Notes under the pieces: model-generated
Told to the model about the DNA's origin: nothing
Database searches by the model: none
What the model saw: only the letters and a program-made list of their open reading frames with translations
Program-made: the position numbers and the translations under genes
From: a virus
DNA length: 42,351 nucleotides
Reading direction: 5' to 3' (one strand)
IMG/VR virus record: IMGVR_UViG_3300045988_041457
Coordinates: 1 to 42,351 of that record
Shown here: positions 1 to 17,691 of the stretch, piece after piece
Layout of the letters: every line of letters begins with the position of its first letter
Position numbering within the stretch: the first letter of the stretch is position 1

Positions 1-49
1 TGTACTTCTTCCTGCTCATTGACATCTTGGGCGCTGTGTTTGCGTGGTA
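1..49. repeat. Terminal duplication (identical to 42303-42351), the signature of a circular assembly or terminal redundancy
   Basis: Direct comparison shows both 49-mers read tgtacttcttcctgctcattgacatcttgggcgctgtgtttgcgtggta. Confidence 0.95.
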
Positions 50-251
50 TAACCTACCCTACTGCGCGATTTTAGCGACGCTGGGTGTGCTGCTTATTGA
101 AGGACGCTCCGTCATCGAGAACTCCAAGAAGAAGCAGAGCGCGGCTGGCAGAGTGGTGGATGCTGTTCAGGAGATTATCTCGTGCGTGGACAGCGAAAAG
201 GCTCAAAGGATTATCGAGATGATTAAGGAATACCCGAAACATAAACAATAA
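1..251 (+). CDS. Holin, 3' part (continuation of the ORF starting at 42098 across the circular junction; TcdE/phage holin_4-like)
   Basis: The frame of track ORF 27..251 is open back to nt 3. Nt 1-49 duplicate 42303-42351, so ATG 42098 reads through to the stop at 249-251 (151 aa in total). The protein has hydrophobic helices and the motif LIDMWTGIDAAKANKEKIMSHGLRKTVRKI. It lies directly upstream of the endolysin. Confidence 0.75.
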   Translation, partial: YFFLLIDILGAVFAWYNLPYCAILATLGVLLIEGRSVIENSKKKQSAAGRVVDAVQEIISCVDSEKAQRIIEMIKEYPKHKQ

Positions 252-263
252 AACTTAAAAAAA

Positions 264-689
264 ATGGGCACAATCAGTAAAGATTTTTCATTTTCGGAAT
301 TTGAGGACAGCAAAATAGCAGAAGAAAAGGGCATTTGCAATGTTGTTCGTTCCTTTGCCGTCCGCGATGCGATAAAGTCGCTTGTGGATAATGTTCTGCA
401 ACCATTGCGCGACATTGCAGGCGTACCACTTCGGATAAATTCCGGATATAGATGTAGTGAGCTAAACGCGGCCGTCGGTGGAGTTCCGACATCACAACAC
501 GTAAAGGGAGAAGCGGCGGATGTCGCTTTTCCTAAACCTATCGAATTGGCCAGAATGGCAGCGGACAATCATTTGCCATTTGACCAGATGATAATTTATC
601 CAACATTTGTGCATTTTTCACACAAACTGAAAGGTAGACAACGTCATCAGGTTTTGTATAACAAGTCATATAAAGGTGAAAAACTTTAA
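264..689 (+). CDS. Endolysin, peptidase M15 family (zinc D-Ala-D-Ala carboxypeptidase-like cell-wall hydrolase)
   Basis: The motif SGYRCSELNAAVGGVPTSQHVKGEAADV followed by FVHFSH gives the H..D..H zinc ligands typical of Peptidase_M15_3/M15A phage lysins. It is adjacent to the holin. Confidence 0.85.
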   Translation: MGTISKDFSFSEFEDSKIAEEKGICNVVRSFAVRDAIKSLVDNVLQPLRDIAGVPLRINSGYRCSELNAAVGGVPTSQHVKGEAADVAFPKPIELARMAADNHLPFDQMIIYPTFVHFSHKLKGRQRHQVLYNKSYKGEKL

Positions 690-694
690 GAGTT

Positions 695-1162
695 ATGTAT
701 AATTATGATTACAGCGATGACTTTGCAAAGCTATCGCAAGAAAAAAAGAAATGGTATCATGTGTTGCTTTATGTCCTATTGTGGATATGGCAATTGCCGC
801 AGAACCTTTTGGGGTTCATCTTCTCGGCAAATATAAGAGATAACGGAGGACAAAGGTATATCTATTGTCTAAAGATTAAAGGCAAGGTGCGTGAAGTTAG
901 ATTTGTTCATTTTCGTGCTTTTCCAGGCGGCGTCACTTTAGGCGAATATATCATTATTGGCGGAAAATGGGACGAAAGCGATGTGCGGCACGAATACGGA
1001 CATGTCCGACAATCACGAATGCTCGGGTGGTTGTATCTTGTGGTGATAGGGATTCCGTCATTGTGGCACGCGTGTTGGCATGATAAATTATGGGCAAAAA
1101 ACAAAGAGTATTCACATTTCTGGACTGAAAAATGGGCAGAAAATTTAGGAGGTGAATTATGA
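695..1162 (+). CDS. Membrane protein with an HExxH metallopeptidase-like motif (lysis-cassette accessory, function unknown)
   Basis: 155 aa. There are two hydrophobic helices (WYHVLLYVLLWIWQLPQNLLGFIF and LGWLYLVVIGIPSLW). HEYGH lies immediately before helix 2. The gene starts 5 nt after the endolysin stop. Confidence 0.6.
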   Translation: MYNYDYSDDFAKLSQEKKKWYHVLLYVLLWIWQLPQNLLGFIFSANIRDNGGQRYIYCLKIKGKVREVRFVHFRAFPGGVTLGEYIIIGGKWDESDVRHEYGHVRQSRMLGWLYLVVIGIPSLWHACWHDKLWAKNKEYSHFWTEKWAENLGGEL

Positions 1163-1278
1163 CAAAGATTGAAGAGAATGAAGTTCACTCGTTTGTCGAG
1201 ATAATGGGCGGCAAATATACGCTGAAGTTGAGCCGCGAAGTGGGGCAATCTGAACTAACATATACACCTAATGCGTAG
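1159..1278 (+). CDS. Small hypothetical ORF (39 aa)
   Basis: This ORF is below the track size cutoff. It has an ATGA start/stop overlap with 695..1162. GGAGG (1148-1152) lies 6 nt upstream of the ATG. Its end overlaps ATG 1271 of the next gene. Sequence: MTKIEENEVHSFVEIMGGKYTLKLSREVGQSELTYTPNA. Confidence 0.35.
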   Translation: MTKIEENEVHSFVEIMGGKYTLKLSREVGQSELTYTPNA

Positions 1279-1873
1279 GCGGTTGATTTTGGCGGCTGTC
1301 ATTGCTGCCATGCTTTTTGCAATAGTATTGCAGGGAGTTTCTATCGGTAGGCTGAAAGACGAGCGAAACCGGTACAGGGAGAACACGAAATCATTGCTCG
1401 TGGATGTCAACACCTACAAGGTGAGGGATTCTTTGAATGCGACAAAGGCGCATGACTTGTCGCTGGAATTGTCTGAACTGAAGAAATACCGGAAAGCGGA
1501 CGCGAAATTGATTGCCGACATGGGCGTAAAGTTGCGCAATCTGCAATCGTTAGCGAGCATGGGCACAGAGACGCGGACGGAATTTGTCACAAGAGTTGTC
1601 CGAGATACGATTATTAAGGTCGTAGGAGACACTAACACGGCCGCATTGATAGATTATGAGGACAAGTGGATGACGTTCAAAGGACGGCTCGAAAATGGGC
1701 AATTTCGGGGCAATATTATATCAAGGGATTCGCTGTTGTTGACTGAGAATGTGAAGTACAAGCGTTTTTTGTTCTGGAGAACCAAGAGGGTAAAAAGTCG
1801 TGATTTTAGGGTTGTTTCTAAAAATCCACATACGAAAATTGTAAATTGTGAACATATTATCATAAAAGAATAG
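1271..1873 (+). CDS. N-terminally membrane-anchored protein, last gene of the lysis cassette (candidate spanin-like or envelope-disruption factor)
   Basis: 200 aa. The N-terminus MRRRLILAAVIAAMLFAIVLQGV is a signal-anchor-like helix, followed by a predicted helical segment. A rho-independent terminator follows at 1932-1962. Confidence 0.55.
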   Translation: MRRRLILAAVIAAMLFAIVLQGVSIGRLKDERNRYRENTKSLLVDVNTYKVRDSLNATKAHDLSLELSELKKYRKADAKLIADMGVKLRNLQSLASMGTETRTEFVTRVVRDTIIKVVGDTNTAALIDYEDKWMTFKGRLENGQFRGNIISRDSLLLTENVKYKRFLFWRTKRVKSRDFRVVSKNPHTKIVNCEHIIIKE

Positions 1874-1931
1874 TATCTTTGCCTTTGTAAGTTATCCTTT
1901 ATTTGTTGGTTTAGTAGTTTTAGTGTTAGAG

Positions 1932-1962
1932 GCAATCCGCAGTGATGCGCATTGCTTTTTTT
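1932..1962 (+). terminator. Rho-independent terminator ending the late/lysis operon
   Basis: The stem pairs gcaat-c-cgc with gcg-c-attgc around a 6-nt loop and is followed by T7 (1956-1962). Confidence 0.7.
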
Positions 1963-2049
1963 ATTATATTTGCTGTGTCATTATTAAAAGCGTTGATGTT
2001 ATATGTTTTTCGAAAATGGTGCGTTGTGAAATGAGCCATTTTTGCGTTT

Positions 2050-2123
2050 TAGTCGTTTTTAGTCGTTTGTGGTCGTTTTTGGTCGTTTTTAGGCATTTTC
2101 TATCCGAAGATGATAAATTATAC
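2050..2123 (+). promoter_or_regulatory. Class-2 composite motif, copy A: five 10-bp-phased boxes plus core
   Basis: The boxes are TAGTCGT (2050), TAGTCGT (2060), TGGTCGT (2070), TGGTCGT (2080) and TAGGCAT (2090), spaced exactly 10 bp apart. The core AAGATGATAAATTATAC (2107-2123) starts 17 nt after the last box. Confidence 0.6.
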
Positions 2124-2197
2124 CTTTTTGACTTTTGGTGCGAAATACGGATGTTTTCGAAAAAATTAACTTTTTTATTAAAAAATATAAAAAAAAG

Positions 2198-2276
2198 TTT
2201 GCATTATTCAAATATTGGTTGTACCTTTGCTTTCGAGATGAGGGAAATACCTCACACGGACAAGGCCGATTCCTTG
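2198..2276 (+). promoter_or_regulatory. Class-1 promoter plus twin-hairpin leader, copy 1
   Basis: TTTG at 2198-2201, a 20-nt spacer, and TACCTTTG at 2222-2229. The hairpins are TGAGG-gaaata-CCTCA (2239-2254) and CAAGG-ccgatt-CCTTG (2261-2276). ATG at 2301. Confidence 0.7.
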
Positions 2277-2300
2277 AACATAAAACAAAAACATAAAGTC

Positions 2301-2495
2301 ATGAAAGCATACGGAATGATGATGCCAAGAACGCATAAGCATTACATTAAGAAAATACGTGGTTGGTTCTATGTCTTTGAGTGTGATGACCTTTCAGGTG
2401 ATGCATTTTTCGAAACAAAGGAAGAAGCAGAAAAATATATCGCAGAAATAGAAGAAGCATGGCAAAAAAAATTAGGAATAACTTGCAAAAAATAA
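2301..2495 (+). CDS. Hypothetical early protein (64 aa)
   Basis: This is the 3' part of track ORF 1923..2495. I moved the start to ATG 2301 because 1963-2300 contains a terminator, repeat arrays and a canonical promoter plus leader ending about 25 nt upstream. Confidence 0.6.
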   Translation: MKAYGMMMPRTHKHYIKKIRGWFYVFECDDLSGDAFFETKEEAEKYIAEIEEAWQKKLGITCKK

Positions 2496-2501
2496 AGAGA
2501 C

Positions 2502-2735
2502 ATGGCAACATTAAAATATACAGTACGAGACATTAACCATAATTTCAAAATTAAGGTTTACGGAATCCACAATGGGCAGAAAGTTGATAAGTTGGTAGGA
2601 GTTAGCGGATTCCTTGCAATAGTAGAAGATGTCGAGTTGTGCAACAGGCTTCTGGATAGGGCATTCAAGACAATGAAAGACAAAGAGGTCTGCAAACTTC
2701 GTAGAGGTATAAAGTTCACTTTTTATTGTGTCTAG
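2502..2735 (+). CDS. Hypothetical early protein (77 aa)
   Basis: Track ORF with an ATG start 6 nt after the previous stop. Confidence 0.6.
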   Translation: MATLKYTVRDINHNFKIKVYGIHNGQKVDKLVGVSGFLAIVEDVELCNRLLDRAFKTMKDKEVCKLRRGIKFTFYCV

Positions 2736-2736
2736 T

Positions 2737-3045
2737 ATGGCAAAGAAGAAACAGACATTAGGCGAAATGTATTCGGAAATTCTTTCGCGTCCGGACATGT
2801 CCGGACGTTGGAAGAAACCGATGAAGTTGTCGGATTGCTGGTGTGTGGGTTCGATATTTCCGGATGAAAGCAAAGCGCGATTGTTCAGATATGATTTGCT
2901 TCTAAAGCAGATGCCGTATCTTTTCGTAGACATGCGCGAAAATAAAGTGGTAGTCGTTATCCGTGCGGATTTCATATTGTCCGATGAAGTGAGGAAGATA
3001 GCAGAATTGTATGACGGCGAGCCGTACAATGTCTCCTTGAAATAA
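2737..3045 (+). CDS. Hypothetical early protein (102 aa)
   Basis: Track ORF 2728..3045 starts at GTG. ATG 2737 lies 1 nt after the previous stop (2733-2735). The gene contains a 20-bp perfect palindrome at 2788-2807. Confidence 0.6.
   Translation: MAKKKQTLGEMYSEILSRPDMSGRWKKPMKLSDCWCVGSIFPDESKARLFRYDLLLKQMPYLFVDMRENKVVVVIRADFILSDEVRKIAELYDGEPYNVSLK
2788..2807. repeat. 20-bp perfect palindrome inside a coding region
   Basis: CGTCCGGACATGTCCGGACG equals its own reverse complement. Confidence 0.9.
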
Positions 3046-3049
3046 AAAA

Positions 3050-3083
3050 GGGCTTGCGTAAAACTTTGAAAAACCGCAAGCCC
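3050..3083. terminator. GC-rich hairpin after the first early cassette (orientation ambiguous)
   Basis: GGGCTTGCG (3050-3058) pairs with CGCAAGCCC (3075-3083) around a 16-nt loop. The T-run lies on the minus-strand side and an A-run follows on the + strand. Confidence 0.35.
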
Positions 3084-3165
3084 GAAGAAAAAATGAAACA
3101 AGGTTGACAACTTGTAATGCAAAGATAGCAAAAAAATACGATATTATGTTGTCATGTTGATTTTG

Positions 3166-3202
3166 AGTTGTGGCCGTTGTGAAATGTCCACAACTTTTTT
3201 TT
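3166..3202 (+). terminator. Rho-independent terminator
   Basis: AGTTGTGG (3166-3173) pairs with CCACAACT (3088 offset: 3188-3195) and is followed by a T8 run to 3202. Confidence 0.65.
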
Positions 3203-3223
3203 ATAAAAAAAATATGCAAAATG

Positions 3224-3298
3224 TTTGCAGAATTAAAAATAATGCTTAACTTTGTATCGGATTCAAGAATGAATCTGACTGACATGGCAGTTTCCATG
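3224..3298 (+). promoter_or_regulatory. Class-1 promoter plus twin-hairpin leader, copy 2
   Basis: TTTG at 3224-3227, a 19-nt spacer, and TAACTTTG at 3247-3254. The hairpins are GATTC-aagaat-GAATC (3260-3275) and CATGG-cagttt-CCATG (3283-3298). ATG at 3318. Confidence 0.75.
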
Positions 3299-3317
3299 AA
3301 TCATAAAATTTTAGAAT

Positions 3318-3647
3318 ATGAAGCCTATTATCTTGGACGTTGAGAATGTAAAAACATTCGTTGGAAAGAAAATCAAATGGAATGCGGATGCGTATTATCT
3401 GAATAGACCCTATGAGGGTGTTGCGGTAATAACAGAGATTGTTGAGGGCAAAAGAGATGAGTTCTCTAAAATCGTTAGTAAAACTCTAAAGTGCGAGACC
3501 CTTTCTGGTGATAACTTGGAGTATGCGTTTGTTGCCGATTTTGGGTTGGAAGAAAGAGATGGCGAAATGTTCTATGCTAATACACCGCATGTCTATTGCT
3601 ACACTGATGCAGATAGGCCAGTTTGTATTCAGGAAATAGAAGATTAA
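3318..3647 (+). CDS. Hypothetical early protein (109 aa)
   Basis: Track ORF. It is a monocistronic cassette, preceded by promoter/leader copy 2 and followed by the terminator at 3703-3729. Confidence 0.7.
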   Translation: MKPIILDVENVKTFVGKKIKWNADAYYLNRPYEGVAVITEIVEGKRDEFSKIVSKTLKCETLSGDNLEYAFVADFGLEERDGEMFYANTPHVYCYTDADRPVCIQEIED

Positions 3648-3702
3648 GTGTTATAATGTGCGCTTTGCCTTTTTTAAGTTGGGAATAATGTGAGATTTTT
3701 AT

Positions 3703-3729
3703 AGGCAAGGTTAATTCCTTGCCTTTTTT
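3703..3729 (+). terminator. Rho-independent terminator after 3318..3647
   Basis: AGGCAAGG-ttaatt-CCTTGCCT is followed by TTTTTT. Confidence 0.8.
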
Positions 3730-3759
3730 ACGTTTTTTTCAAAAAAAATAAAGAAAAAG

Positions 3760-3832
3760 TTTGCACATTAAAAATAAATGCCTACCTTTGTACCAGAATC
3801 AAGGATGATTCACTGACTAGGCAGATTCCTAG
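3760..3832 (+). promoter_or_regulatory. Class-1 promoter plus twin-hairpin leader, copy 3
   Basis: TTTG at 3760-3763, a 19-nt spacer, and TACCTTTG at 3783-3790. The hairpins are GAATC-aaggat-GATTC (3796-3811) and CTAGG-cagatt-CCTAG (3817-3832). ATG at 3853. Confidence 0.75.
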
Positions 3833-3852
3833 AATGAGAAAATTTATTAGTT

Positions 3853-4722
3853 ATGGCAACAATTAACACAATAAGAAAGCAGATTGAAACCGCAACAAAG
3901 CGCATGGAATCGGCAAAGGCTAAAATAGCAATGTATGATGAGCGAACAGCTAATACTATTGCCAAGGCAGCCAAGGCAACAGGAATGAACGTAACAATTG
4001 ATAATTACGACAAATTATTGTCGACTATTGAGAATTGGGAATGGCGCTACAAAATCGAGTGCAATATAGATAGCAAAAAGTCTAACGAGAAGATTGCTTC
4101 GAAAGAAGTCGAAATGTTGAAATTGTTGAACGTGAAATTGACAAAGATGGAACAGAGTGCAGCGGAAAAGGAAATTGCAAATAGCGCGTTAAAAGTTGCA
4201 TTGAGCGATGTAATGTCAGACTTCAAAAAGTGCTGGTTCGAAAAGATGATAAATTGGTATTCCGCTCATTATGACATCATGCGAAATGCTTTGCCGGAAG
4301 CCATTGAGCGGAGAAAAAAATGCGATAGGATTGAACGAAATTACATGTACGATTTTTTAAGGATGCGCAAATATCATATAAGAATGTATAATTTCGTGAA
4401 AGCAGAAAGGCATAAGGCAATAGAAATCATCTTTGATAATGCAAATCGCATGGATAAAGTGAGGTATATGTCCGAAGTCAATACAATGCTGGTTAATAGC
4501 TGGGAAAAAGGAATTGACAAATTGGCTGACAAGTGCAAGTCTTTCGGAATTGATGAAAACAAAATTAAGGTTGAAAATCCGGAGATGACAGAAAAGGGTT
4601 TCGAGGTCTTAATAACTGACGGAAAAGCAAGAAATATATATGCTCGTGTGATTTGGGCGGCCGAATATTCATCATTTGTTATGCCGCACACAAGATATAT
4701 AGTAACCGAAAGAACAAAGTAA
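3853..4722 (+). CDS. Hypothetical protein (289 aa), helical and Lys/Glu-rich
   Basis: Track ORF preceded by promoter/leader copy 3. I recognised no motif. Confidence 0.7.
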   Translation: MATINTIRKQIETATKRMESAKAKIAMYDERTANTIAKAAKATGMNVTIDNYDKLLSTIENWEWRYKIECNIDSKKSNEKIASKEVEMLKLLNVKLTKMEQSAAEKEIANSALKVALSDVMSDFKKCWFEKMINWYSAHYDIMRNALPEAIERRKKCDRIERNYMYDFLRMRKYHIRMYNFVKAERHKAIEIIFDNANRMDKVRYMSEVNTMLVNSWEKGIDKLADKCKSFGIDENKIKVENPEMTEKGFEVLITDGKARNIYARVIWAAEYSSFVMPHTRYIVTERTK

Positions 4723-4726
4723 AAAT

Positions 4727-5155
4727 ATGAAAATTAAGAATGATGAAAACTTGCAACGCTTGGCCGAAGTTGCCGGCGTTGCTCCAGAAACAATGTCGAA
4801 GCACATTGCATCTAATCTCTTAAAGTTTGACGATACGATAGATGATAGCAACAATTGGCTAAATGAAATAGCCGATTTTATTCCAGAAGATACGCCGATA
4901 TGCGATGTCGCAAAGATGTTGGACAAGTGCGGAATTAAGCGCCGGACAATGGCAACTTTATCGGCCTTTTTTCATTGCGTTGTAATTGGAGATGGAACTT
5001 GCCCTGTATGTGGTGGAGATTTGGACGTTGAGGAAATCGGGCATTATCTGAATGATGGAGATAGTTACACAGAACGCACATGGGTAGTTGATGAGTATGT
5101 GCATGTATGTCATGAATGTGGTTTTACAAAAAAAAGTAAGTATGAAGAATTTTAA
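4727..5155 (+). CDS. Hypothetical protein with a C-terminal zinc-ribbon (CPVCG...CHECG)
   Basis: Track ORF. Two CxxC pairs lie about 35 aa apart near the C-terminus. Confidence 0.65.
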   Translation: MKIKNDENLQRLAEVAGVAPETMSKHIASNLLKFDDTIDDSNNWLNEIADFIPEDTPICDVAKMLDKCGIKRRTMATLSAFFHCVVIGDGTCPVCGGDLDVEEIGHYLNDGDSYTERTWVVDEYVHVCHECGFTKKSKYEEF

Positions 5156-5381
5156 GATTGAAGAAGCCCTCGCGAGGGCGAAAGACAACGGAGCGCGAAT
5201 ATTCAAGACTGATATTGCCGCAAAGCTATGGCCGGAATCAAATCGCGACACACAAAGAATGAATATGACAAATCTTTGCAATGGTCGAAGCACGAGAATA
5301 AAGCCGGAATGGGCATTGATAATATGCGACATGTGCGGTTGTACGTTGGACTTTTTATTTGGTAAAGACGATGAAAAATAA
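5142..5381 (+). CDS. XRE-type helix-turn-helix DNA-binding protein (79 aa)
   Basis: Track ORF 5088..5381. ATG 5142 is in frame and limits the overlap with the upstream gene to 14 nt. The pattern IAAKLW...TQRMNMTNLCNGRS...ALIICDMCGCTLDFLFG resembles Cro/C1-type HTH proteins. Confidence 0.6.
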   Translation: MKNFKIEEALARAKDNGARIFKTDIAAKLWPESNRDTQRMNMTNLCNGRSTRIKPEWALIICDMCGCTLDFLFGKDDEK

Positions 5382-5532
5382 ATCATATTTGACGTGGACG
5401 ATTGTCTGGTCGGTTATCGCGTTATTAACGATTATTAGCACGTTCTGGAATAAAGCGCAATGGATTAGTTTCGGAGTCGCATTTATTATGGCAATTGGGT
5501 GCTATAAGGAATATTTAGATAGTGAGGAATAG
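5371..5532 (+). CDS. Small membrane protein (53 aa, two hydrophobic helices)
   Basis: This ORF is below the track cutoff. ATG 5371 overlaps the last codons of the HTH gene. Sequence: MKNKSYLTWTIVWSVIALLTIISTFWNKAQWISFGVAFIMAIGCYKEYLDSEE. It fills an otherwise empty 175-nt gap. Confidence 0.5.
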   Translation: MKNKSYLTWTIVWSVIALLTIISTFWNKAQWISFGVAFIMAIGCYKEYLDSEE

Positions 5533-5555
5533 ACAACTAAAACAAAATAAAAAAA

Positions 5556-6671
5556 ATGAAAGAGAAAGAAACAAACGTGGCATTTGACATGCTCAAAGAG
5601 CCTGAAAGGATGGAAATCACGTCCGGTATGACAACGGAGGAAATCAAGGCGTTGTTCTTCGATGCGAGCGCATTGAGAGAGCCGAAATACAAGGTCTATC
5701 GCCTTGACAGCAACGGCTATCGCTATTATTACAGATTCAACGAGGCAGGTGAACCGGAGTTCTATCCTTCAGTTACTACATTGTTAAGGCAGGTAATGCC
5801 GACAAGTCCGTTTTTGATTTCGTGGATGATGGAGAATGGCAAAGAACAGGCGGAAGAAAAGCGCGATTTGTCCGCCGCTTACGGAACGTTGATGCACATG
5901 GAATTTGAGCGATTGATAATATCGCGCAAGTATGACTTTGACGCGGTGCCGGAAGTCGTGAGGGCGTATATGCAAGAGAACCATTTGCCGGATAAGTTCT
6001 TCGGCGATAGCGTGGTGAAGTTGCGTAAAGATGTGCTTGCTTTTGCGCAGTTCATAAAGGATTACAACGTCAAGCCGTTGGCTATCGAGATAGGACTTGT
6101 TCATCCGGAGTATCACTTTGCCGGATGCGTGGATATGCCTTGCGAAATGGTTGACCCAAAGACGGGCGAGGTGTTCAAAGCTATTGTTGATTTCAAGTCT
6201 GGACGCAAGGGATTCTTCGAGGAACACGAGATTCAGTTGCATTTGTACGCGATGATGTGGAATGTGAACTTTCCGGACATGCAGATTGACAAGGTGTTTA
6301 ATTTTTCGCCGAAAGATTGGCGCACGAAGCCGACATATAATTTGAAAGACCAGACGGATTCGCCAAATGCGGCCAAGATTCCGGCATTGTTGCAGTTAGC
6401 AACGATTGAGGATGAGAAGCGAAAGAACACATTGACAATCGTACATGGTGAGATTTCGCTGGACAACAACGAGCCGCTGAATAATATTCTTTCCATTTCG
6501 CTTGCGGAACTCGTAAAGAGTAAGACAAGCAAGGAAGAAATGGCCGAAATTAGGCCAAATTTCGAGCCTAAGGAAGAAAGCGAGGGAAATATACCTTTGG
6601 TCGAGGAAAAGGCGAATACGGACGGAATTTGCGGCATACCGCAAGACTTGTTCGATGAAGATGAGTTTTGA
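5556..6671 (+). CDS. PD-(D/E)XK superfamily nuclease (RecB/Cas4-like phage exonuclease)
   Basis: The sequence GCVDM ... AIVDFKSGRK ... HEIQLHLYAMMW gives the D / D-x-K / QxxxY motif order of RecB-family nucleases. Confidence 0.65.
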   Translation: MKEKETNVAFDMLKEPERMEITSGMTTEEIKALFFDASALREPKYKVYRLDSNGYRYYYRFNEAGEPEFYPSVTTLLRQVMPTSPFLISWMMENGKEQAEEKRDLSAAYGTLMHMEFERLIISRKYDFDAVPEVVRAYMQENHLPDKFFGDSVVKLRKDVLAFAQFIKDYNVKPLAIEIGLVHPEYHFAGCVDMPCEMVDPKTGEVFKAIVDFKSGRKGFFEEHEIQLHLYAMMWNVNFPDMQIDKVFNFSPKDWRTKPTYNLKDQTDSPNAAKIPALLQLATIEDEKRKNTLTIVHGEISLDNNEPLNNILSISLAELVKSKTSKEEMAEIRPNFEPKEESEGNIPLVEEKANTDGICGIPQDLFDEDEF

Positions 6672-6673
6672 TT

Positions 6674-7372
6674 ATGGGCGGTAGAATTGTAAGGCCGGAA
6701 ACTCCACAAGGTTTGGAGTTTCCGGAAATAGGCAGACTGCATATAGGGATGAAAAGCGACAAAGGCTACCCGATGAGCATAGATTGGTTTCGCGCAACAG
6801 GCAAGTATGCAGACAAGTTCACAGAAGCCTATGGTGATAAGCCGAACACCATCCAGATAGTTTTTCCGTCCGATAATGTCGAGTATGTATGTAACGAAAG
6901 ATTCGAATATCGAGATAATGCAGGCGCGTTGTTGTCAGATGGTGACGGTAAGACTTTCCGCCTTTGGAATGGCAAATCATGGTCGATGTATTCGACAGAG
7001 CAATATCCGGACTTCATGGAGTGGGTTGTCAAGAACTATCCGACAAAGCGAGGTGCGGAAAATTGGAATATTACCTTGACTTTGAGATTTATCATACCGG
7101 CAATTCGCGGCATTATGGGTGTCTGGAGATTCAGCACGAAAGGTTCAGCGTCAAGTGTGAACAATATCCGCAATTCGTTTGATTCAGTGATGCAGATGCG
7201 CGGCTCCGTCACGACTTCGGTATTCGATTTGTCGGTGCATTTCCACAAGTCAAACAAGCCAAACGATAATTCGCGTTATCCTGTTGTCGACTTGATAGCG
7301 AATGATACGCGAATTGAGGATATTCGAAAGATGTTACAGCAAGATTCAAATCTTAAATTGTTACAGAAATGA
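6674..7372 (+). CDS. Hypothetical protein. It is a candidate recombination partner (annealing or ssDNA-binding protein) on position only
   Basis: Track ORF 6668..7372 starts at TTG. ATG 6674 follows the nuclease stop by 2 nt. I recognised no motif. The function guess rests only on the common exonuclease-plus-SSAP gene pairing. Confidence 0.5.
   Translation: MGGRIVRPETPQGLEFPEIGRLHIGMKSDKGYPMSIDWFRATGKYADKFTEAYGDKPNTIQIVFPSDNVEYVCNERFEYRDNAGALLSDGDGKTFRLWNGKSWSMYSTEQYPDFMEWVVKNYPTKRGAENWNITLTLRFIIPAIRGIMGVWRFSTKGSASSVNNIRNSFDSVMQMRGSVTTSVFDLSVHFHKSNKPNDNSRYPVVDLIANDTRIEDIRKMLQQDSNLKLLQK
6695..6725. other. Perfect 12-bp-stem hairpin 21 nt into ORF 6674..7372
   Basis: CCGGAAACTCCA (6695-6706), loop caaggtt, then TGGAGTTTCCGG (6714-6725). 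Confidence 0.85.
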
Positions 7373-7803
7373 TTGATATAGATATTGACAAATCATATAC
7401 AAAAAAGGCAGCGGCAGAATGCATGGGCATTTCTATATACGCTGTCAACAAGGCTATCAGAATAGGAAGATTGCAAAGTACCGAAAATGATGGCAAAATA
7501 GAGATTAAAGGTTCGGATTTGTATAAATACTGCAAATCAAGGTGGGATGTCCTACGAAGAACGCCGTTAGCGGAAAAGAAGTATAACATGTCAACCATTG
7601 ACGGGGTGCTGTCAGAGTGCAACCGGATAGCGAATTTTATTGGTGTTCGAATCGAGTTCCGGCATGACGGGTACAGGGTAATCTTGAACGGAAAGACATA
7701 CGCAAAGAATCTTGATTTAGGGTGCTTGCTTGCGTTCATGCAAGGGTGTGATATGTTTTATCGCGTTCATAAAAATTGTGCAATACCTAAATATTACAGA
7801 TGA
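7369..7803 (+). CDS. HTH DNA-binding protein (excisionase/MerR-like HTH at the N-terminus)
   Basis: KKAAAECMGISIYAVNKAIRIGRLQS is a helix-turn-helix pattern. The gene has ATGA overlaps with both neighbours. Confidence 0.5.
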   Translation: MIDIDIDKSYTKKAAAECMGISIYAVNKAIRIGRLQSTENDGKIEIKGSDLYKYCKSRWDVLRRTPLAEKKYNMSTIDGVLSECNRIANFIGVRIEFRHDGYRVILNGKTYAKNLDLGCLLAFMQGCDMFYRVHKNCAIPKYYR

Positions 7804-8567
7804 TGGAGAACATAGAATTATATAATGACCATTTCCAAAATTTCAAAGTGTATCATTTACCAAAGGCACAATTGGTCATAGCGGATATTCCGTACAATAT
7901 CGGGAAAAATGCGTATGGTAGCAATCCGAAATGGTACAAGGATGGAGACAACAAGAACGGAGAATCCGAGTTGGCCGGTAAAGAATTTTTCGACACGGAC
8001 AAAGATTTTCGAGTGGCAGAATATATGCACTTTTGTTCGCACATGCTGAAAAAAGAGCCAAAAGAAACTGGGAAAGCACCATGTATGATTGTTTTTTGCG
8101 CGTTTGAGCAACAAATGTACGTTATTGAAAAGGCGCGCGAAGCCGGATTTAACAATTATATCAATCTGGTTTTCCGCAAAAATTATTCGGCGCAAGTCCT
8201 CAAAGCGAACATGCGGATAGTTGGTAATTGCGAATATGCAATTCTTCTCTATCGTGACAAGTTGCCGAAGTTCAACAATAACGGGCGAATGATATTCAAC
8301 TGCATGGATTATCCGCGCGATAATGAAAGCCCGAAAATTCATCCGACACAGAAGCCTATTCAGTTGTTAGAGAGGCTTATAGAGATTTTTACAGACCCTG
8401 ACGATGTAGTAATTGACCCGTGTGCCGGAAGCGGATCTACGTTGGTAGCAGCGCAAATTACAGGGCGCAAAGCATACGGATTCGAGATTAAAAAGGATTT
8501 CTACAAAAAGGCTTGCGAGTGGATAAACATGCCAAAAGTGCATAATATGTTTAATCAAAATTTGTAA
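7800..8567 (+). CDS. DNA methyltransferase, beta-class N6-adenine/N4-cytosine family (orphan, no endonuclease partner seen)
   Basis: Motif IV (IADIPYNIG, a DPPY variant) precedes motif I (VIDPCAGSGSTLVAA). HPTQKPIQLLERLI is typical of the N-4/N-6 DNA methylase family. Confidence 0.85.
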   Translation: MMENIELYNDHFQNFKVYHLPKAQLVIADIPYNIGKNAYGSNPKWYKDGDNKNGESELAGKEFFDTDKDFRVAEYMHFCSHMLKKEPKETGKAPCMIVFCAFEQQMYVIEKAREAGFNNYINLVFRKNYSAQVLKANMRIVGNCEYAILLYRDKLPKFNNNGRMIFNCMDYPRDNESPKIHPTQKPIQLLERLIEIFTDPDDVVIDPCAGSGSTLVAAQITGRKAYGFEIKKDFYKKACEWINMPKVHNMFNQNL

Positions 8568-8573
8568 AAAAAT

Positions 8574-8686
8574 TGTAGGTAACAAAAAATTTTGTACATT
8601 TGCAATGTGATAGCGGCAACTATCGGAGAAAATTAAAAGGCCACGAGAGGATTGTTTGAGGTTGCCGACTCAACATCTTCTCGTGG
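8574..8686 (+). promoter_or_regulatory. Promoter and structured leader of the replication-initiator operon
   Basis: TTG at 8574-8576, a 19-nt spacer, and TACATTTG at 8596-8603. The leader hairpin pairs CCACGAGA (8641-8648) with TCTCGTGG (8679-8686), with an inner TTGAG/CTCAA pair. ATG at 8701. Confidence 0.5.
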
Positions 8687-8700
8687 CTATTTTTATAGCC

Positions 8701-9591
8701 ATGAACTATTTATATAACATCAGCATTAACCAGTGTGCGGTAATCGAGAATGGTTGGGATTTAGACCTTGCTGACCTTGCGATTTTTCAAGTCTTTCATA
8801 TTTTCGGAAATGCTCCGAAAACAGTGAGGGTAAAGGTTGACGGCTCGGATTATTTCATGATAACCGCAAAAAAAATCAGAGAAGAATTGCCGATTCTAGG
8901 CATAAATACTGACAAGCAAATAAAGAATCGAATTGCAAAACTAGTCGCTTGCAAACTTTTGGATGAAAGGGTTGTCGAGGAATTGGGTTCTGGACGCAAG
9001 TCCTATTGTTTCGGTGAAAACTATGAGAAATTATTTTCCACTAGCGGAAAAAATTTTGCGCAAGAGCGGAAAAATATTTCCGATGAGGTGGAAAAAAATT
9101 TCCAACAAGGGTGGAAAAAAATTTCCACTGAAGATTATACTAAAAAAGAAGATAATACTAAAGATTATACTAATAATGCCCCCCTTATATCCCCCCGAGG
9201 GGAAAACAACGCCTCTGACATTTCCGGTGATTTGAATAATGATGGCGTTTCTAAAGCGAAAAAGGAACTTTGTCCGTTTGCCTCAACGGAATTCAAAGAG
9301 GCGTGGGAAATGTTGTTGCAACAGCCGAAGTGGAAAAAGAAATCGCTGAATGCTATAAGGTTGTCCGCTAAAAAATTAAAGAAGTTTGAGGAAGAATTTG
9401 CGCGAACCATGGTAGAACTTGCGATTGTGAACGATTGGCATGGTGTTATCTTTCCGGACACAGAAGAACGTTACAAGAAGTGGCTACAAGGCAGGCAAGC
9501 GGCTAAACCGGCCGGAACACCGCAATTCAGAAGCGAAGCGGACAAAAGGGCATATTATGAGGGTTTGCTAAATGGAACGATAAGGCGATGA
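8701..9591 (+). CDS. Replication initiator / replisome-organizer-like protein (lambda O-like architecture)
   Basis: Track ORF 8656..9591 starts at TTG inside a leader hairpin, so I prefer ATG 8701. There is an N-terminal winged-helix-like domain. The low-complexity linker is encoded by four phased iterons plus an AT-rich tract (9044-9173). A C-terminal helical domain follows. Confidence 0.55.
   Translation: MNYLYNISINQCAVIENGWDLDLADLAIFQVFHIFGNAPKTVRVKVDGSDYFMITAKKIREELPILGINTDKQIKNRIAKLVACKLLDERVVEELGSGRKSYCFGENYEKLFSTSGKNFAQERKNISDEVEKNFQQGWKKISTEDYTKKEDNTKDYTNNAPLISPRGENNASDISGDLNNDGVSKAKKELCPFASTEFKEAWEMLLQQPKWKKKSLNAIRLSAKKLKKFEEEFARTMVELAIVNDWHGVIFPDTEERYKKWLQGRQAAKPAGTPQFRSEADKRAYYEGLLNGTIRR
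9044..9173. repeat. Candidate origin of replication: four phased iterons plus an AT-rich direct-repeat tract inside the initiator gene
   Basis: The iterons are gcGGAAAAAATTTTgcg (9044-9060), gcGGAAAAATATTTCCg (9066-9082), gtGGAAAAAAATTTCCa (9088-9104) and gtGGAAAAAAATTTCCac (9111-9128). Their starts are 22, 22 and 23 bp apart. AAGATTATACTAA (9131-9143), AAGATAATACTAA (9149-9161) and AAGATTATACTAA (9161-9173) follow. Confidence 0.55.
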
Positions 9592-10340
9592 AAAAGACAG
9601 AATATTTGCAGATTCCGCAAGTGGCAAAAATGCTTACGGAAAATGAGAAGAAAGTAGTAAGAGCAAATGATGGAAAGCCGCTTTTGAAAGCGGAGGATTT
9701 TGAGATAGTTGAGGTGCTTGACAGAGCAGCATTGATGACCGGAACTGCGTGGTCGAAAACACAAAACGATTTGCGCCGAATTGTGGATTTCATCCGCGAT
9801 ATGTTCGGCAATCTTACGACAGATGATTTTGTCAATGCTTTCATGTTCCTATGTGCTGGCGAAATTGATATGTATTTGCCGGCGAATAGGTCAGGACAAC
9901 CGGACCGGAATTCTTACGGAACGTTTAACGAAGCATACATTGGCAAAGTTTTGCGCGCATATTCAAATTATTGCTATCAAGTATATCGTAAGATTAACTA
10001 TTATATGCCGCGAGCGCGAGTAACAGATATTGATGCTGGCAATGATGAAAGGCGCAATCACGAAAGAAACAGGCAGGAAAGAAACAGGAATGTGCTTAAT
10101 GAGTTTGAAACGTGGAAAAAAAGTGGAAATCTGGGATGTGATAATTTCGAAATTATTGTCATTTGGCAAGCACTTTATTCGCTTGGCTTGATACAAGGAC
10201 AGGAAGCGGGCGTTAATGATGTTGTCAATGCCGTTATGTGCAGCAAGAAAGACGAGAGGAGAATAAATGACATTAAGACAGCGTTTTCAGAAGTTGCAAG
10301 AAAAAAAATCAATTTACAGAATAAATTAAATGAGTTATGA
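9588..10340 (+). CDS. Hypothetical protein in the helicase-loader (lambda P-like) position
   Basis: Track ORF with ATGA overlaps to the initiator and to the RuvC-like gene. It has no Walker motif. The function is inferred from position only. Confidence 0.55.
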   Translation: MKKTEYLQIPQVAKMLTENEKKVVRANDGKPLLKAEDFEIVEVLDRAALMTGTAWSKTQNDLRRIVDFIRDMFGNLTTDDFVNAFMFLCAGEIDMYLPANRSGQPDRNSYGTFNEAYIGKVLRAYSNYCYQVYRKINYYMPRARVTDIDAGNDERRNHERNRQERNRNVLNEFETWKKSGNLGCDNFEIIVIWQALYSLGLIQGQEAGVNDVVNAVMCSKKDERRINDIKTAFSEVARKKINLQNKLNEL

Positions 10341-10897
10341 AAGAGATGCAGATTAACGCTATCATGGGCATAGACCCAGGAGCACAAGGTGGTATCGCGG
10401 TCTATATCGACGGAATGAACGTCAAAAGGCACAAAATGCCGAAAGACAATGAAGAATTGCGCGATTTGTTGAATTACTATCGTACGAACTTCAATTGCTT
10501 GGCGTTTCTGGAAAAATTATGCTTGCGTCCGGATGATGTGTCGGTTGATGGTGGAAAGAAGAACATGGGAAAGGCGTTCAGGATGCAGAAGATGTTAGCG
10601 AACTTCGAGCACCTGAAAGCGGTTCTGGAGATTATCGGAATGCCGTATGTGCTTGTGCATCCGATGTCATGGCAGTCAAGATTAGGTTTGCGAATCAAGG
10701 GAGAGGAAAAGAAAGAGAGGAAAGCGAGATACAAGGAAGAAGCGGAAAAGTTGTATGGTGGAAATGTTACGCTTTGGAATGCCGATGCGCTTTTGATAAT
10801 GCACTTTGGGCGACACATCCTCAAAAATGATGTAAAATGGTTGCTGAAGAACTTGCCGGAAAGGGAGCATGGGAAACTATTTGCCGATAATGGCTAA
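10337..10897 (+). CDS. RuvC-like Holliday-junction resolvase
   Basis: AIMGIDPGAQGGIAVY supplies the N-terminal catalytic Asp motif, AFLEK the Glu, and NADALLIMHFGRH the C-terminal Asp. Confidence 0.6.
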   Translation: MKEMQINAIMGIDPGAQGGIAVYIDGMNVKRHKMPKDNEELRDLLNYYRTNFNCLAFLEKLCLRPDDVSVDGGKKNMGKAFRMQKMLANFEHLKAVLEIIGMPYVLVHPMSWQSRLGLRIKGEEKKERKARYKEEAEKLYGGNVTLWNADALLIMHFGRHILKNDVKWLLKNLPEREHGKLFADNG

Positions 10898-10900
10898 AAA

Positions 10901-10965
10901 TAGGCGATTATAGCGACTTTTGAAGAAAAGATATATAATTTATCAATCGCGCGAAAAAACGCGCG
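10901..10965 (+). promoter_or_regulatory. Class-2 composite motif, copy B (upstream of dut)
   Basis: TAGGCGA at 10901-10907, TAGCGAC at 10911-10917 and core AAGATATATAATTTATC at 10928-10944. The hairpin CGCGCG-aaaaaa-CGCGCG spans 10948-10965. TAAAACGCAAATT and AAAATAACATG follow. The ATG lies 91 nt after box 1. Confidence 0.6.
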
Positions 10966-10991
10966 TAAAACGCAAATTTGGAGAAAATAAC

Positions 10992-11411
10992 ATGGAAGTA
11001 AAAGTTAAGAAAGTAATGGATTGTGCGGTTATGCCGGCCAAGGCGCACGCGGCAGATGCAGGATTCGATTTGAGGGCTTGCAAGGTTGAACGTGTCGGAT
11101 TCGATGAAATAGTATGTCATACAGGATTAGCCTTTGAAATTCCAGATGGACATGTCGGTTTGTTATTTCCTAGGAGTTCAATCGCACGGACTGCAATGAT
11201 GCTGAAAAATTCGGTCGGAGTTCTGGATTCTTGCTATCGTGGTGAAGTCACTTTCAAATTCCGTCAATTGGATAATGGAGACACGTATAATGTAGGCGAT
11301 AAAATAGGGCAAATTATTATAATGCCTTATCCGGAAATCATATTTGTCGAAAGTGATAATTTGAGCGATACGGAGCGCGGTGCTGGTGGCTATGGTTCGA
11401 CAGGCAGATAA
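10992..11411 (+). CDS. dut: dUTP diphosphatase (dUTPase)
   Basis: All five trimeric dUTPase motifs are present: AGFDL, PRSS, GVLDSCYRGE, GDKIGQIII and RGAGGYGSTG. Track ORF 10920 starts at TTG inside the upstream regulatory motif, so I prefer ATG 10992. Confidence 0.92.
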   Translation: MEVKVKKVMDCAVMPAKAHAADAGFDLRACKVERVGFDEIVCHTGLAFEIPDGHVGLLFPRSSIARTAMMLKNSVGVLDSCYRGEVTFKFRQLDNGDTYNVGDKIGQIIIMPYPEIIFVESDNLSDTERGAGGYGSTGR

Positions 11412-11439
11412 AAATTTTCGAAAATATTTTGCAAAAATG

Positions 11440-11512
11440 TTTGCAAATTAAAAAATAATGCTTAACTTTGTATCGGATTCAAGAAAGAATCACTGACAAG
11501 GCAGTTTCCTTG
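11440..11512 (+). promoter_or_regulatory. Class-1 promoter plus twin-hairpin leader, copy 4
   Basis: TTTG at 11440-11443, a 19-nt spacer, and TAACTTTG at 11463-11470. The hairpins are GATTC-aagaaa-GAATC (11476-11491) and CAAGG-cagttt-CCTTG (11497-11512). ATG at 11535. Confidence 0.75.
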
Positions 11513-11534
11513 AAACATTAAATTTTTAGAAATT

Positions 11535-11786
11535 ATGGATAATGTAAAAGTTATGAAAGTCGCTCGTTTGGCAAAGAACTTTTTGAGAATTGCAGATGAA
11601 TTGAATGAGAAAGTTTCAAGATATTTCAATGGTTCAAATGCTTCAGAAGATGTTAGAGCCTATGAGATGGTAAGGGAAGCAGATAAAAAGTTCGTGGATG
11701 GCCTGAATGATTTAGAGGATGAGCGTTATGAGTATGGCTTGAATTATGAACTTGCAGAATCTTTTTTGGATGGTTTTAATTTCTAA
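11535..11786 (+). CDS. Hypothetical acidic protein (83 aa)
   Basis: Track ORF preceded by promoter/leader copy 4. Confidence 0.65.
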   Translation: MDNVKVMKVARLAKNFLRIADELNEKVSRYFNGSNASEDVRAYEMVREADKKFVDGLNDLEDERYEYGLNYELAESFLDGFNF

Positions 11787-11797
11787 AATTTTGAGTT

Positions 11798-12058
11798 ATG
11801 AAAAGGTTTGAAGTTGGTAAAACTTATAGGATGGTAAGCCCTTGCGATACAAATTGCGCATGGTATTACACGGTAACAAAGAGGACTGCAAAAACAGTCA
11901 CTTTGTTGGATTTTGACAAAGAAGAAACGATTGTCCCGAGGTTGGCAGAAATGAAAGCGATTGACAGAGTAACGAGCATTGAAAGTGGCGAGGAATATTG
12001 CAAGCCGTTGGGCGATTTCTCGATGTGTCCTATTTTACGCGCTTCTAAAGATGTATAA
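11798..12058 (+). CDS. Hypothetical protein (86 aa)
   Basis: Track ORF with close spacing to its neighbours. Confidence 0.6.
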   Translation: MKRFEVGKTYRMVSPCDTNCAWYYTVTKRTAKTVTLLDFDKEETIVPRLAEMKAIDRVTSIESGEEYCKPLGDFSMCPILRASKDV

Positions 12059-12060
12059 TC

Positions 12061-12324
12061 ATGAGCGAGTTTGATGAATTGGTAAAGTTGGGAAAGTCGA
12101 AAGGCTGGGTGCTTTCCGAGATGTACCGAAATAAGGGTTATAAATTTGCGGCTTTCCGGATGGAAAACAAGAAAATGTTTTTCATGGTTCAAGATGGTAT
12201 GTTTAACGTGGGTTTTTATGGCTTTATTCCGGATAATCCTTTGGAGATTATGTTTAGGGATTGCGGAGATTCTTTAATATCGGTGGCTAGTTTGACCTTT
12301 GAGCAGATACAAAGTTTGATATAA
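12061..12324 (+). CDS. Hypothetical protein (87 aa)
   Basis: Track ORF starting 2 nt after the previous stop. Confidence 0.6.
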   Translation: MSEFDELVKLGKSKGWVLSEMYRNKGYKFAAFRMENKKMFFMVQDGMFNVGFYGFIPDNPLEIMFRDCGDSLISVASLTFEQIQSLI

Positions 12325-12330
12325 TATGAT

Positions 12331-12401
12331 TGCCTTATGGTGTAATGGTAGCACAAATGATTTTGGTTCATTTAGTTCCGGTTCGAATCCGGATAGGGTA
12401 A
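12331..12401 (+). tRNA. tRNA-Gln (anticodon UUG), no encoded CCA
   Basis: I folded the cloverleaf by hand. The acceptor pairs 12331-12337 with 12394-12400 (two G-U pairs, U1-A72). The D stem is gtgt/gcac with an aatggta loop. The anticodon stem is aatga/tcatt with loop tt-TTG-gt (U33, G37). The T arm is tccgg-ttcgaat-ccgga. Confidence 0.85.
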
Positions 12402-12429
12402 CAAAGAACAACCAAAAAACTGAAGTTGT

Positions 12430-13845: not shown

Positions 13846-14257
13846 CTATCAAGCGATAGGAATAGTTGACGACAGCGGCCATTTGCGTATGCCGATGGCC
13901 GATGTCAATGATTTTTTCCGCAAGCACAAGGGCGATAGAATCGTGGCGCGATTCATGGCTTATCCTAGGGGCTGTTCGGATGCCCTCAAAGGTTATTATT
14001 ATAACTATGTCGTACCGACAATGCGCCGCGCGTTGAATGACATGGGAGAAGCAAAGACGGATGCGGAAACTGACGTATATTTGCGCGAGGTGTGTCCGTT
14101 GCTACAATGTCAGCGGAAGATTGAGGATGGCTGGGATAGCAGGACGCTTGAAATAGAGGAATTGGGCGATAGGTTAATGATTGATTTCTTGGAGTGGTTA
14201 AAGATGTGGGGCGCGGAAAACATGTCAGTATATATTGAAGAACCAAAAATTTTATAA
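13838..14257 (+). CDS. Hypothetical protein (139 aa), translationally coupled to the ATPase
   Basis: Track ORF with an 8-nt overlap onto the ATPase gene. Confidence 0.6.
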   Translation: MNDYQAIGIVDDSGHLRMPMADVNDFFRKHKGDRIVARFMAYPRGCSDALKGYYYNYVVPTMRRALNDMGEAKTDAETDVYLREVCPLLQCQRKIEDGWDSRTLEIEELGDRLMIDFLEWLKMWGAENMSVYIEEPKIL

Positions 14258-14259
14258 TT

Positions 14260-14436
14260 ATGAGAAAGATTGATTTTAAGGAGTATGATAGTTACACCTA
14301 CAAGGAAGCAGGGTTCTCGTACACAAGCACAAATTTCGATGAGGTTATGGGTTTGTTGAAAGAGCGAAAGAAAGGGGTTGTGTACGGCAACAAGCTAAAT
14401 GGAGATGTCAACATCTTGGATGGAATAATGGAATAA
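14260..14436 (+). CDS. Small hypothetical protein (58 aa)
   Basis: This ORF is below the track cutoff. ATG 14260 lies 2 nt after the previous stop. The ORF ends just before the regulatory motif at 14444. Sequence: MRKIDFKEYDSYTYKEAGFSYTSTNFDEVMGLLKERKKGVVYGNKLNGDVNILDGIME. Confidence 0.45.
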   Translation: MRKIDFKEYDSYTYKEAGFSYTSTNFDEVMGLLKERKKGVVYGNKLNGDVNILDGIME

Positions 14437-14443
14437 GCTAAAT

Positions 14444-14508: not shown

Positions 14509-14534
14509 TAAAACGCAAATTAAATAAAAATAAC

Positions 14535-14723: not shown

Positions 14724-14735
14724 AAAACAAGTATC

Positions 14736-15848: not shown

Positions 15849-15919
15849 GAACAACGGAATCGAAACAATATGAACCCGATAACACGGGAAAGAATGTCTA
15901 ATGTTAAAAGAAAAATAAA

Positions 15920-17689: not shown

Positions 17690-17691
17690 TT

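Follow-up and report, generated by a model that had tools for sequence, protein, structure and literature searches.

The window analyzed here is the complete IMG/VR virus record IMGVR_UViG_3300045988_041457 (42,351 bp, circular map); every gene is encoded on the + strand, and a 49-bp terminal repeat represents an assembly overlap within the holin gene. Judged from its sequence, it is a PDS1-like siphovirus of gut Bacteroidales. Its relatives are gut Bacteroidales siphoviruses of about 45 kb, with Parabacteroides phage PDS1 and Alistipes phage AS73P1 as type members. Small early genes start at 2301 and are followed by recombination, replication, and nucleotide-metabolism genes up to about 21 kb, by TerS and TerL (21.6-23.7 kb), by head and tail genes, and by lysis genes that wrap round to 1873. 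Because the gene order passes in this way from late/lysis to early genes, positions 1874-2300 separate the last late gene from the first early gene. We describe this junction and, in particular, an array of 10-bp boxes that precedes a promoter-like core, here called class 2, and a host-type early promoter, here called class 1 (Table 1).

An initial annotation of the window had placed a dense non-coding control region at this late/early boundary. This was borne out, and every element that it listed was found where it had been placed. An open reading frame of 190 amino acids (1923..2495) runs across the region and had been judged spurious upstream of 2301. The 1923-2300 segment had a codon-usage score of -0.009; the 239 in-frame 378-nt windows of real genes all scored higher, from 0.079 upward, and every out-of-frame window scored lower. 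Its product would be rich in Phe and Cys, as T-rich DNA would give, and no homologue of it was found in the relatives. The segment is non-coding, in agreement with the earlier judgment.

Table 1. Features of the late/early junction (window positions; terminator, promoter, and leader assignments are predictions)
Feature	Position	Strand	Remarks
Intrinsic terminator T1, closing the late/lysis operon	1928..1962	+	Stem GAGGCAAUCCGCA...UGCGCAUUGCUUU, then a 7-T run
Lone -7-type box TATATTTG	1965..1972	+	Between T1 and T2; read from the sequence
Palindrome 1, TTTTCGAAAA	2007..2016		Right half is the 5' foot of T2
Terminator-type hairpin T2	2011..2044	+	Conserved loop GTTGTGAAAT; fold -13.5 kcal/mol, z-score -3.1
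Box array	2042..2099	+	Degenerate TTGCGTTTT plus five 10-bp units; one T-tract per unit, in helical phase
Class-2 core	2107..2123	+	TAAATT (2114-2119) exactly 17 bp past proximal box TAGGCAT (2090-2096)
Class-2 leader remnant	2124..2170	+	Ends ...TTTTCGAAAAAATTAAC; counterpart of the family-conserved ...AAAATTCnnnGAAAATAAC
Palindrome 2, TTTTCGAAAA	2154..2163		Within the tail of the cassette leader
T-run/A-run tract	2171..2196	+	T6 ATT A6 TATA A7; upstream of -33; predicted curvature peak of 30.1 degrees at 2181
Class-1 promoter	2198..2229	+	TTTG (2198-2201), 20-nt spacer, TACCTTTG (2222-2229)
Leader	2236..2300	+	Small hairpins at 2239-2254 and 2261-2276, then an A-rich tail up to the ATG at 2301
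First early gene, 64 amino acids	2301..2495	+	ATG at 2301; coding score 0.188

The boxes at 2050, 2060, 2070, 2080, and 2090 read TAGTCGTTTT, TAGTCGTTTG, TGGTCGTTTT, TGGTCGTTTT, and TAGGCATTTT, respectively. Tandem Repeats Finder reported the array with a period of 10, 4.6 copies, and 88% matches; the other period-10 rows in the window reached at most 2.0 copies. Two assemblies from other samples were base-for-base identical to the window over this region. As the same five-box array is present in independent assemblies, it is not an assembly artefact.

The array belongs to a cassette that recurs in the genome. At the junction, GATGATAAATTATACC is found at 2109-2124; relatives conserve GATGATAAATT. 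The genome has related cores at about 10930, at 14473, 21487, and 23757, and at about 32925. The proximal and distal boxes are at -19/-29 from GATGATAAATT at 2109, 10930, 14473, and 23757 and at -20/-30 at 32925. These class-2 boxes are direct repeats of the TAGGCGAnnn and TAGCGACTTT type. In these five cassettes, 16 to 17 bp separate the proximal box from a downstream hexamer, TA(A/T/G)A(T/A)T, and the -33 TTTG is missing. Paired boxes at this spacing are confined to the cassettes, and single boxes are frequent by chance. The other cassettes precede the dUTPase gene, an SSB-containing block, TerS, a 216-amino-acid head-type protein, and the tape measure. A -10-like hexamer thus stands at a fixed distance from a repeated box at -35, and the normal upstream element is missing. 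Replacement of the normal upstream element by a repeated box is the signature of activator-dependent promoters, such as the T4 middle, pho-box, and lambda CII promoters, and by analogy with these we infer that class 2 is an activator-dependent middle or late promoter.

In this setting, the five boxes of the junction are evidently a tandem amplification of the upstream box of a class-2 cassette. The initial annotation had seen five boxes phased at 10 bp, and their phasing and positions stand; its treatment of them as a separate operator set does not, as they are amplified class-2 upstream boxes of variable number. Its suggestion that they are cooperative binding sites appears plausible.

The leader of the cassette was also compared. 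At three other cassettes of the genome, ...AAAATTCnnnGAAAATAAC abuts the ATG or lies within 3 nt of it. No stable RNA structure was predicted in the cassette leader of the junction (2124-2175; z-score, 0.14). Some cassettes carry an inverted copy of the box about 21 to 27 nt past the core, which reads AAAGTCGCTT (14497-14509) or, at the 21487 cassette, AAAATCGCTT (21511-21523). The inverted box also is present in most PDS1-like junctions (PDS1; L084, about 1772-1782), and such cassettes are roughly symmetric around an AT-rich, near-palindromic core. The junction cassette of the window has no inverted copy.

Related junctions were then collected. A blastn search with the region and a megablast search with window positions 1-20000 against GenBank phages returned no related DNA; a scan of viral contigs with the 18-nt core gave chance matches only, and a protein-level scan of metagenome contigs with the spanin-like gene gave none. 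Relatives were later obtained by exact-protein look-ups. Close relatives were represented by the DNA flanking homologues of the adjacent 200-amino-acid lysis-cassette protein (82-99% identity). Thirteen assemblies with at least 87% identity form, together with the window, what we call the close clade (14 genomes). For the wider family, 80 related loci were fetched via the conserved 77-amino-acid gene that lies downstream.

The layout of the junction was found to be widely shared. At least 62 of the 80 PDS1-like loci have the same order of terminator, two to four units of T-tract plus G/C box, core, leader, spacer, and class-1 promoter with hairpin leader. In the wider family the core reads GTGGATAA(A/T)TT and the leader ends ...AAAATTCnnnGAAAATAAC. 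The T-run of the terminator is 40 to 43 nt from the core in 59 of 66 scorable loci, compared with 144 nt in the window, which indicates that the ancestral junction holds about two boxes. Elizabethkingia phage TCUEAP2 (L216:630-870), which has a Flavobacteriales host, shows the same layout with a leader ending AAAATAAC; the cassette therefore spans orders of Bacteroidota.

Within the closer relatives, the array is kept throughout, and its number of boxes is polymorphic. The 82-84% clade has three boxes of canonical type (TGGCCGTTTT, TAGGCGATTT, TAGCGACTTT) and a hairpin-to-core distance of 50 nt. The boxes of the close clade are TAGTCGTTTT or TGGTCGTTTT plus a proximal TAGGCA(C/T)TTT or TAGGTACTTT, and they number three at 87-88% identity, four at 94-96%, six in one 96% genome (L227), and five at 97-100%. 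For three, four, five, and six boxes, the hairpin-to-core distance is 49, 59, 69, and 79 nt, respectively. The initial annotation had proposed a check of the 10-bp phasing in related genomes, and the phasing proved to be conserved. A range of three to six copies across the close clade is what would be expected of a copy-number-variable ("tuning") promoter repeat. Since the unit equals one helical turn, gain or loss of copies keeps the boxes and their T-tracts on one face of the helix, and only the number of sites and the bend change.

The same comparison bears on a neutral explanation, in which the array is a microsatellite produced by replication slippage, the extra boxes are idle, and the cassette, if functional, uses its two proximal boxes. 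The units are near-identical (at the 88% matches given above), their number varies among strains in which the adjacent 200-amino-acid protein is 94-100% identical, more distant relatives have only two to three boxes, and slippage by 10 bp retains the phase automatically. However, all 13 assemblies of the close clade keep the array, never with fewer than three boxes, though the flanking bases have diverged. Arrays retain unit variants such as TGGTCGTTTT and TAGTCGTTTG, and these are not the same in L240 as in the window, which indicates age rather than a fresh slip; phasing of T-tracts upstream of the core also is seen in distant relatives with other box sequences. On balance, we consider neutrality rather unlikely, though a serious contender.

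We also predicted the curvature of the DNA with a wedge model, the result of which is qualitative only. The array was the top predicted curvature peak of the genome, with 41.6 degrees over 30 bp, whereas the genome averages 9.6 +/- 5.4. The boxes of the PDS1 junction were the third-highest peak in the PDS1 genome; among the junctions of relatives, several were above the 99.7th percentile and four were at only the 69th to 91st. The predicted overall bend was 64, 85, 92, and 101 degrees for three, four, five, and six boxes, respectively. The T-run/A-run tracts of class-1 promoters also gave high peaks, as did the DNA beside the class-2 copy designated D. The second-highest peak of the genome (33.1 degrees at 23805; 23800-23830) has class-2 copy D on one side and a weak -7-type box, TATCTTTG, on the other; the peak and the box precede the 216-amino-acid head-type gene, a second tandem arrangement that resembles the junction.

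Taken together, these features lead us to favor, at roughly even chances, a reading in which the array binds an activator, acts as a curved upstream element, or does both, and thereby tunes the regulated class-2 promoter that stands in tandem with the early promoter. The hairpins T1 and T2 would stop late/lysis transcription. The first early genes would have tandem promoters, of which the class-1 promoter, requiring the host only, would fire at once and the regulated class-2 promoter upstream would act later. Each added box would provide an extra site and a T-tract on the same helix face and so raise the occupancy of the factor, the bend, or both. The array would then act as an upstream activating element of variable copy number, through which the strength or cooperativity of the class-2 promoter is set. 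Promoter activity, its timing, a factor that binds the boxes, and an effect of copy number are what we infer from this arrangement. The shift from TAGGCGA to TAGTCGT in the amplifying clade would fit weaker sites that are offset by number.

Several points weigh against this reading. The amplified unit, TAGTCGT, differs from the canonical TAGGCGA and TAGCGAC at two positions. A 10-bp unit slips in 10-bp steps only, so that retention of phase does not speak for selection, and the variation in copy number may be neutral. The curvature values from the wedge model are qualitative only. The core is near-palindromic, and its minus strand can be read as TATAAT with a TTCGCA -35; the + orientation was assigned because the + strand TAAATT is conserved and because of the direction of the genes. 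Scans of 52 phage proteins against PHROGs, Pfam, and NCBIfam revealed no sigma factor, MotA-like protein, response regulator, or activator family. The predicted fold of the 77-amino-acid protein encoded past the junction had no solved-structure match in the PDB, DNA-binding structures included. The available regulator candidates are a 79-amino-acid homologue of a gene annotated in PDS1 as a helix-turn-helix regulator and a 142-amino-acid zinc-ribbon protein.

Two related ideas were set aside. One was that the boxes are genome specific, which would imply a co-evolving phage factor; it was dropped, as the boxes of orthologous cassettes are alike in PDS1 and the window phage. The other was that the 77-amino-acid protein determines box specificity, which is not obvious, since this protein is near-invariant among relatives with differing boxes.

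The cassette invites comparison with several known systems. In T4 middle promoters, the MotA box replaces the -35 element, and prereplicative genes often have such a promoter upstream of them in tandem with an early one. The class-2 cassettes are alike in having a phage box at -35 with a -10-type hexamer, in being repeated before gene blocks, and in being positioned, at the junction, upstream of a host-type early promoter, so that the same genes have two promoters. Unlike T4 middle promoters, the cassettes of the window and its relatives have two to six direct boxes at a 10-bp phase rather than a single MotA box, no MotA or AsiA homologue was found, and the host is a member of the Bacteroidota, whose sigmaA uses -33/-7 elements.

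The pho boxes bound by PhoB/OmpR-type regulators are 7-bp direct repeats with A/T spacers, spaced by about one helical turn and overlapping the -35, with several at some promoters; the lambda CII site is TTGC-N6-TTGC around the -35. The junction resembles these in its 7-bp repeats with a 3-bp T-rich spacer, in a proximal repeat at -35, in further repeats upstream on the same helix face, and in the missing normal upstream element. It differs in that the box sequence is unrelated, the number of boxes is polymorphic, and no response regulator or CII-like protein was found. Curved upstream DNA and UP elements, which stimulate promoters, also offer a parallel, in that T4-5 tracts recur at 10-bp intervals just ahead of a promoter-like core, but the G/C parts of the boxes, which curvature alone would not need, are conserved among the cassettes of the window. 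The TAAA "tuning" repeats of Neisseria nadA likewise are tandem repeats upstream of a promoter with a copy number that varies among strains; the unit described here, in contrast, is a full helical turn, is phase neutral, and occurs in a lytic phage.

The initial annotation had likened the region, with its two TTTTCGAAAA palindromes, to a multi-operator switch or a cooperative-binding/looping region. The two copies at the junction are 147 bp apart, and a third copy was found at 11415-11424. The exact sequence occurs three times against 0.39 expected from whole-window shuffles; within the 2,570 nt of intergenic DNA, the expectation is 0.06, and none of 2,000 dinucleotide shuffles reached three. 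With one mismatch permitted, there are 11 TTTTCGAAAA-like sites against 7.5 expected, and the enrichment is gone. The related ATTTCGAAAA is present at 23773-23782. The copy at 11415 sits at the T-run/A-run position of the class-1 promoter at 11440.

Conservation of the two palindromes differed. Palindrome 1 was present in 13 of 13 assemblies of the close clade; the 82-84% clade has TTTTCAGGGG or TTTTTTGGGGG in its place. Since it coincides with the foot of the conserved T2 stem, it is best explained as a by-product of the A/T-rich version of this stem. Palindrome 2 was perfect only in the window and three near-identical assemblies (L219-L221) and was degenerate in 9 of the 13 close assemblies. 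Elsewhere its site reads TTTTCGAGAAAA, TTTTCGGAAAAA, TTTTCAAGAAAA, or AAATTCCAAGAAAA, and the half-site spacing varies overall from 0 to 3 nt and among the close relatives from 0 to 2 nt. This variable spacing, together with an inter-palindrome distance that shifts with the number of boxes, makes the palindromes a poor fit to a rigid dimeric operator.

The paired palindromes are thus not conserved together in relatives and are not an operator pair, and the switch or looping region was not substantiated. A regulator that bound both palindromes and governed early transcription by forming a DNA loop across the box array would account for the enrichment of the exact palindrome in intergenic DNA, for the position of the two copies on either side of the array at a distance of about 14 helical turns, and for similar T-run-CG-A-run motifs near other promoters. 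It is difficult to reconcile with a palindrome 2 that is intact in so few assemblies, with a palindrome 1 that belongs to a terminator-type hairpin and is missing from the 82-84% clade, with a spacing that shifts by 10 to 20 bp with box number, and with the loss of enrichment at one mismatch, and no repressor was found. We consider looping highly improbable.

The position and repeat structure of the array could also suggest a packaging site (pac or a cosB-like site bound by the small terminase) or a secondary replication origin. Phased direct repeats lie here at a boundary, on strongly bent DNA next to an AT-rich tract. In addition, the GenBank record of Parabacteroides phage PD691P4 (L217:1-190) begins inside the junction, at the boxes, with a run of G12 in place of the core, which is either an artefact or a hint of a physical end. 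Against these roles, TerS (21566-22063) is encoded 19 kb away, deposited relatives begin at arbitrary positions, and the unit of boxes plus core is found at five other places, each time before a gene module.

A separate set of iterons also argues against an origin. These are lambda-like repeats of 22 to 23 bp, unrelated in sequence to the boxes, present in 3.7 copies with internal dyad symmetry at 9043-9127 within the RepA-like open reading frame 8656-9591 and followed by AT-rich 12-bp repeats (to 9173). Positions 9043-9173 are likely to be the real origin, to judge by this organization; gp16 of PDS1 is annotated as a replication initiator. Like the lambda ori iterons, the array has several direct repeats (five to six 10-bp units at 2042-2099) by an AT-rich tract (2160-2197). 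Unlike them, it is neither in nor beside the initiator gene, and it does not match the iterons of that gene. An origin role of the array is unlikely because of these separate iterons, and the secondary replication role entertained in the initial annotation loses ground for the same reason. We regard a packaging or origin function as quite improbable.

Exact TAGTCGTTTT arrays also were found in bacterial DNA. Such arrays, variable in number at 4 to at least 7 copies, begin at or just past the stop codon of a conserved 561-amino-acid AlbA_2-HATPase_c_4 protein with a winged-helix-like tail in four contigs from gut metagenomes and in a single Bacteroidales genome bin (L129:9713-9860, L133:1945-2014, L166:14-140, L125:1-45, L212:1-76, and L213:2119-2193). 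The amplified boxes of the phage might copy a host cis-element and recruit or titrate a host DNA-binding protein. Two of the host loci add about nine degenerate GGTCGTT boxes at a spacing of about 10 bp, resembling a protein-binding region, and in the genome bin one contig has the array at its start and a Cas10/RAMP (type III CRISPR-Cas) operon immediately after it. A separate contig of the same bin ends with the AlbA_2 gene and the array; the adjacency of the two contigs is assumed.

In PADLOC, the only matches of the AlbA_2 protein were weak Schlafen-domain ones, to models associated with pAgo. At 80-90% identity to one another, the host proteins represent one orthologous locus and one independent occurrence, and the TAGTCGTTTT unit also is found in unrelated environmental contigs. 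Moreover, the other phage cassettes use TAGGCGA/TAGCGAC rather than TAGTCGT, and the phage has no homologue of the AlbA_2 protein. We regard mimicry of a host element as barely probable. Its specific form, in which the phage array copies the host array to recruit or soak up the AlbA_2 protein and thereby would couple early/middle transcription to a defense-linked regulator or interfere with it, is a long shot.

The elements on either side of the cassette were examined in the same way. T1 was positive in a terminator scan (RNA fold, -14.9 kcal/mol; z-score, -2.85), consists of a stable G+C-containing hairpin directly before a T-run, as intrinsic terminators do, and is kept in all close relatives. 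T2 has an A/T-rich stem and an interrupted T-run in the window; in the 82-84% clade, it has a GC-rich stem (GTGGCGC/GCGCCAC) followed by T7. In the family alignment, it occupies the position where relatives have a GC-rich hairpin and T7 directly upstream of the boxes. Its consensus structure maintains 14 pairs across clades, with one-sided changes only. The TATATTTG box between the two hairpins is kept in the 82-100% clades and has no properly spaced -33 TTTG; transcription from it could yield a short RNA, some 70 nt in length, with its end at T2. Rfam gave two sub-threshold small RNA matches over 1922-2044 and, at the gathering score, tRNA only.

The class-1 promoter has the sequence elements of what we take to be the canonical Bacteroidota sigmaA promoter (consensus -33 TTTG, N19-21, and -7 TAnnTTTG), and it is conserved at the junction in relatives. 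There are six intergenic copies in the genome (2198, 3224, 3760, 11440, 16897, and 20832); one further match, inside the portal gene at 26256, is due to chance. A long T-run/A-run tract precedes the copies at 2198, 3224, 3760, and 16897, and a shorter TTTTCGAAAA version precedes that at 11440. The tract at the junction resembles an UP element. Both hairpins of the leader that the initial annotation had described are present (fold, -12.6 kcal/mol; z-score, -2.4), and they are identical in the relatives that share the leader.

The 64-amino-acid product of the first early gene matched no known family, and the gene is an indel among close relatives. In L221 and L222 (97-99% identity) it is missing, and the class-1 promoter and leader lead directly to the 77-amino-acid gene; in some relatives of 82% identity, the class-1 promoter is followed by another leader and a 96-amino-acid gene. 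The 77-amino-acid gene (2502-2735) is the first gene past the junction in most relatives, with a mean column identity of 84%, and its product is predicted to form an alpha/beta unit (predicted local distance difference test score [pLDDT], 91.7). Homing-endonuclease genes of HNH/NUMOD type flank the class-2 cassette, on either side, in several relatives (L067:2380-2870, L008:2150-2680, L058:2385-2870, and L003:4720-5195), and in some of these the cassette leader runs into the endonuclease gene. These insertions mark the junction as a plastic spot of the genome.

The paper on PDS1 describes no promoters or cis-elements, and no study is known of how the abundant siphoviruses of gut Bacteroidales control their transcription. 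If the array is without effect, the finding amounts to an ordinary microsatellite within an ordinary control region. The junction points to a host-type early promoter preceded by a second, probably activator-dependent class that is common to phages of Parabacteroides, Alistipes, and Elizabethkingia. The natural series of three to six boxes provides ready alleles for asking whether the number of sites or the bend tunes a phage promoter, and the class-2 cassette may be of use as a regulated part for Bacteroides genetics.

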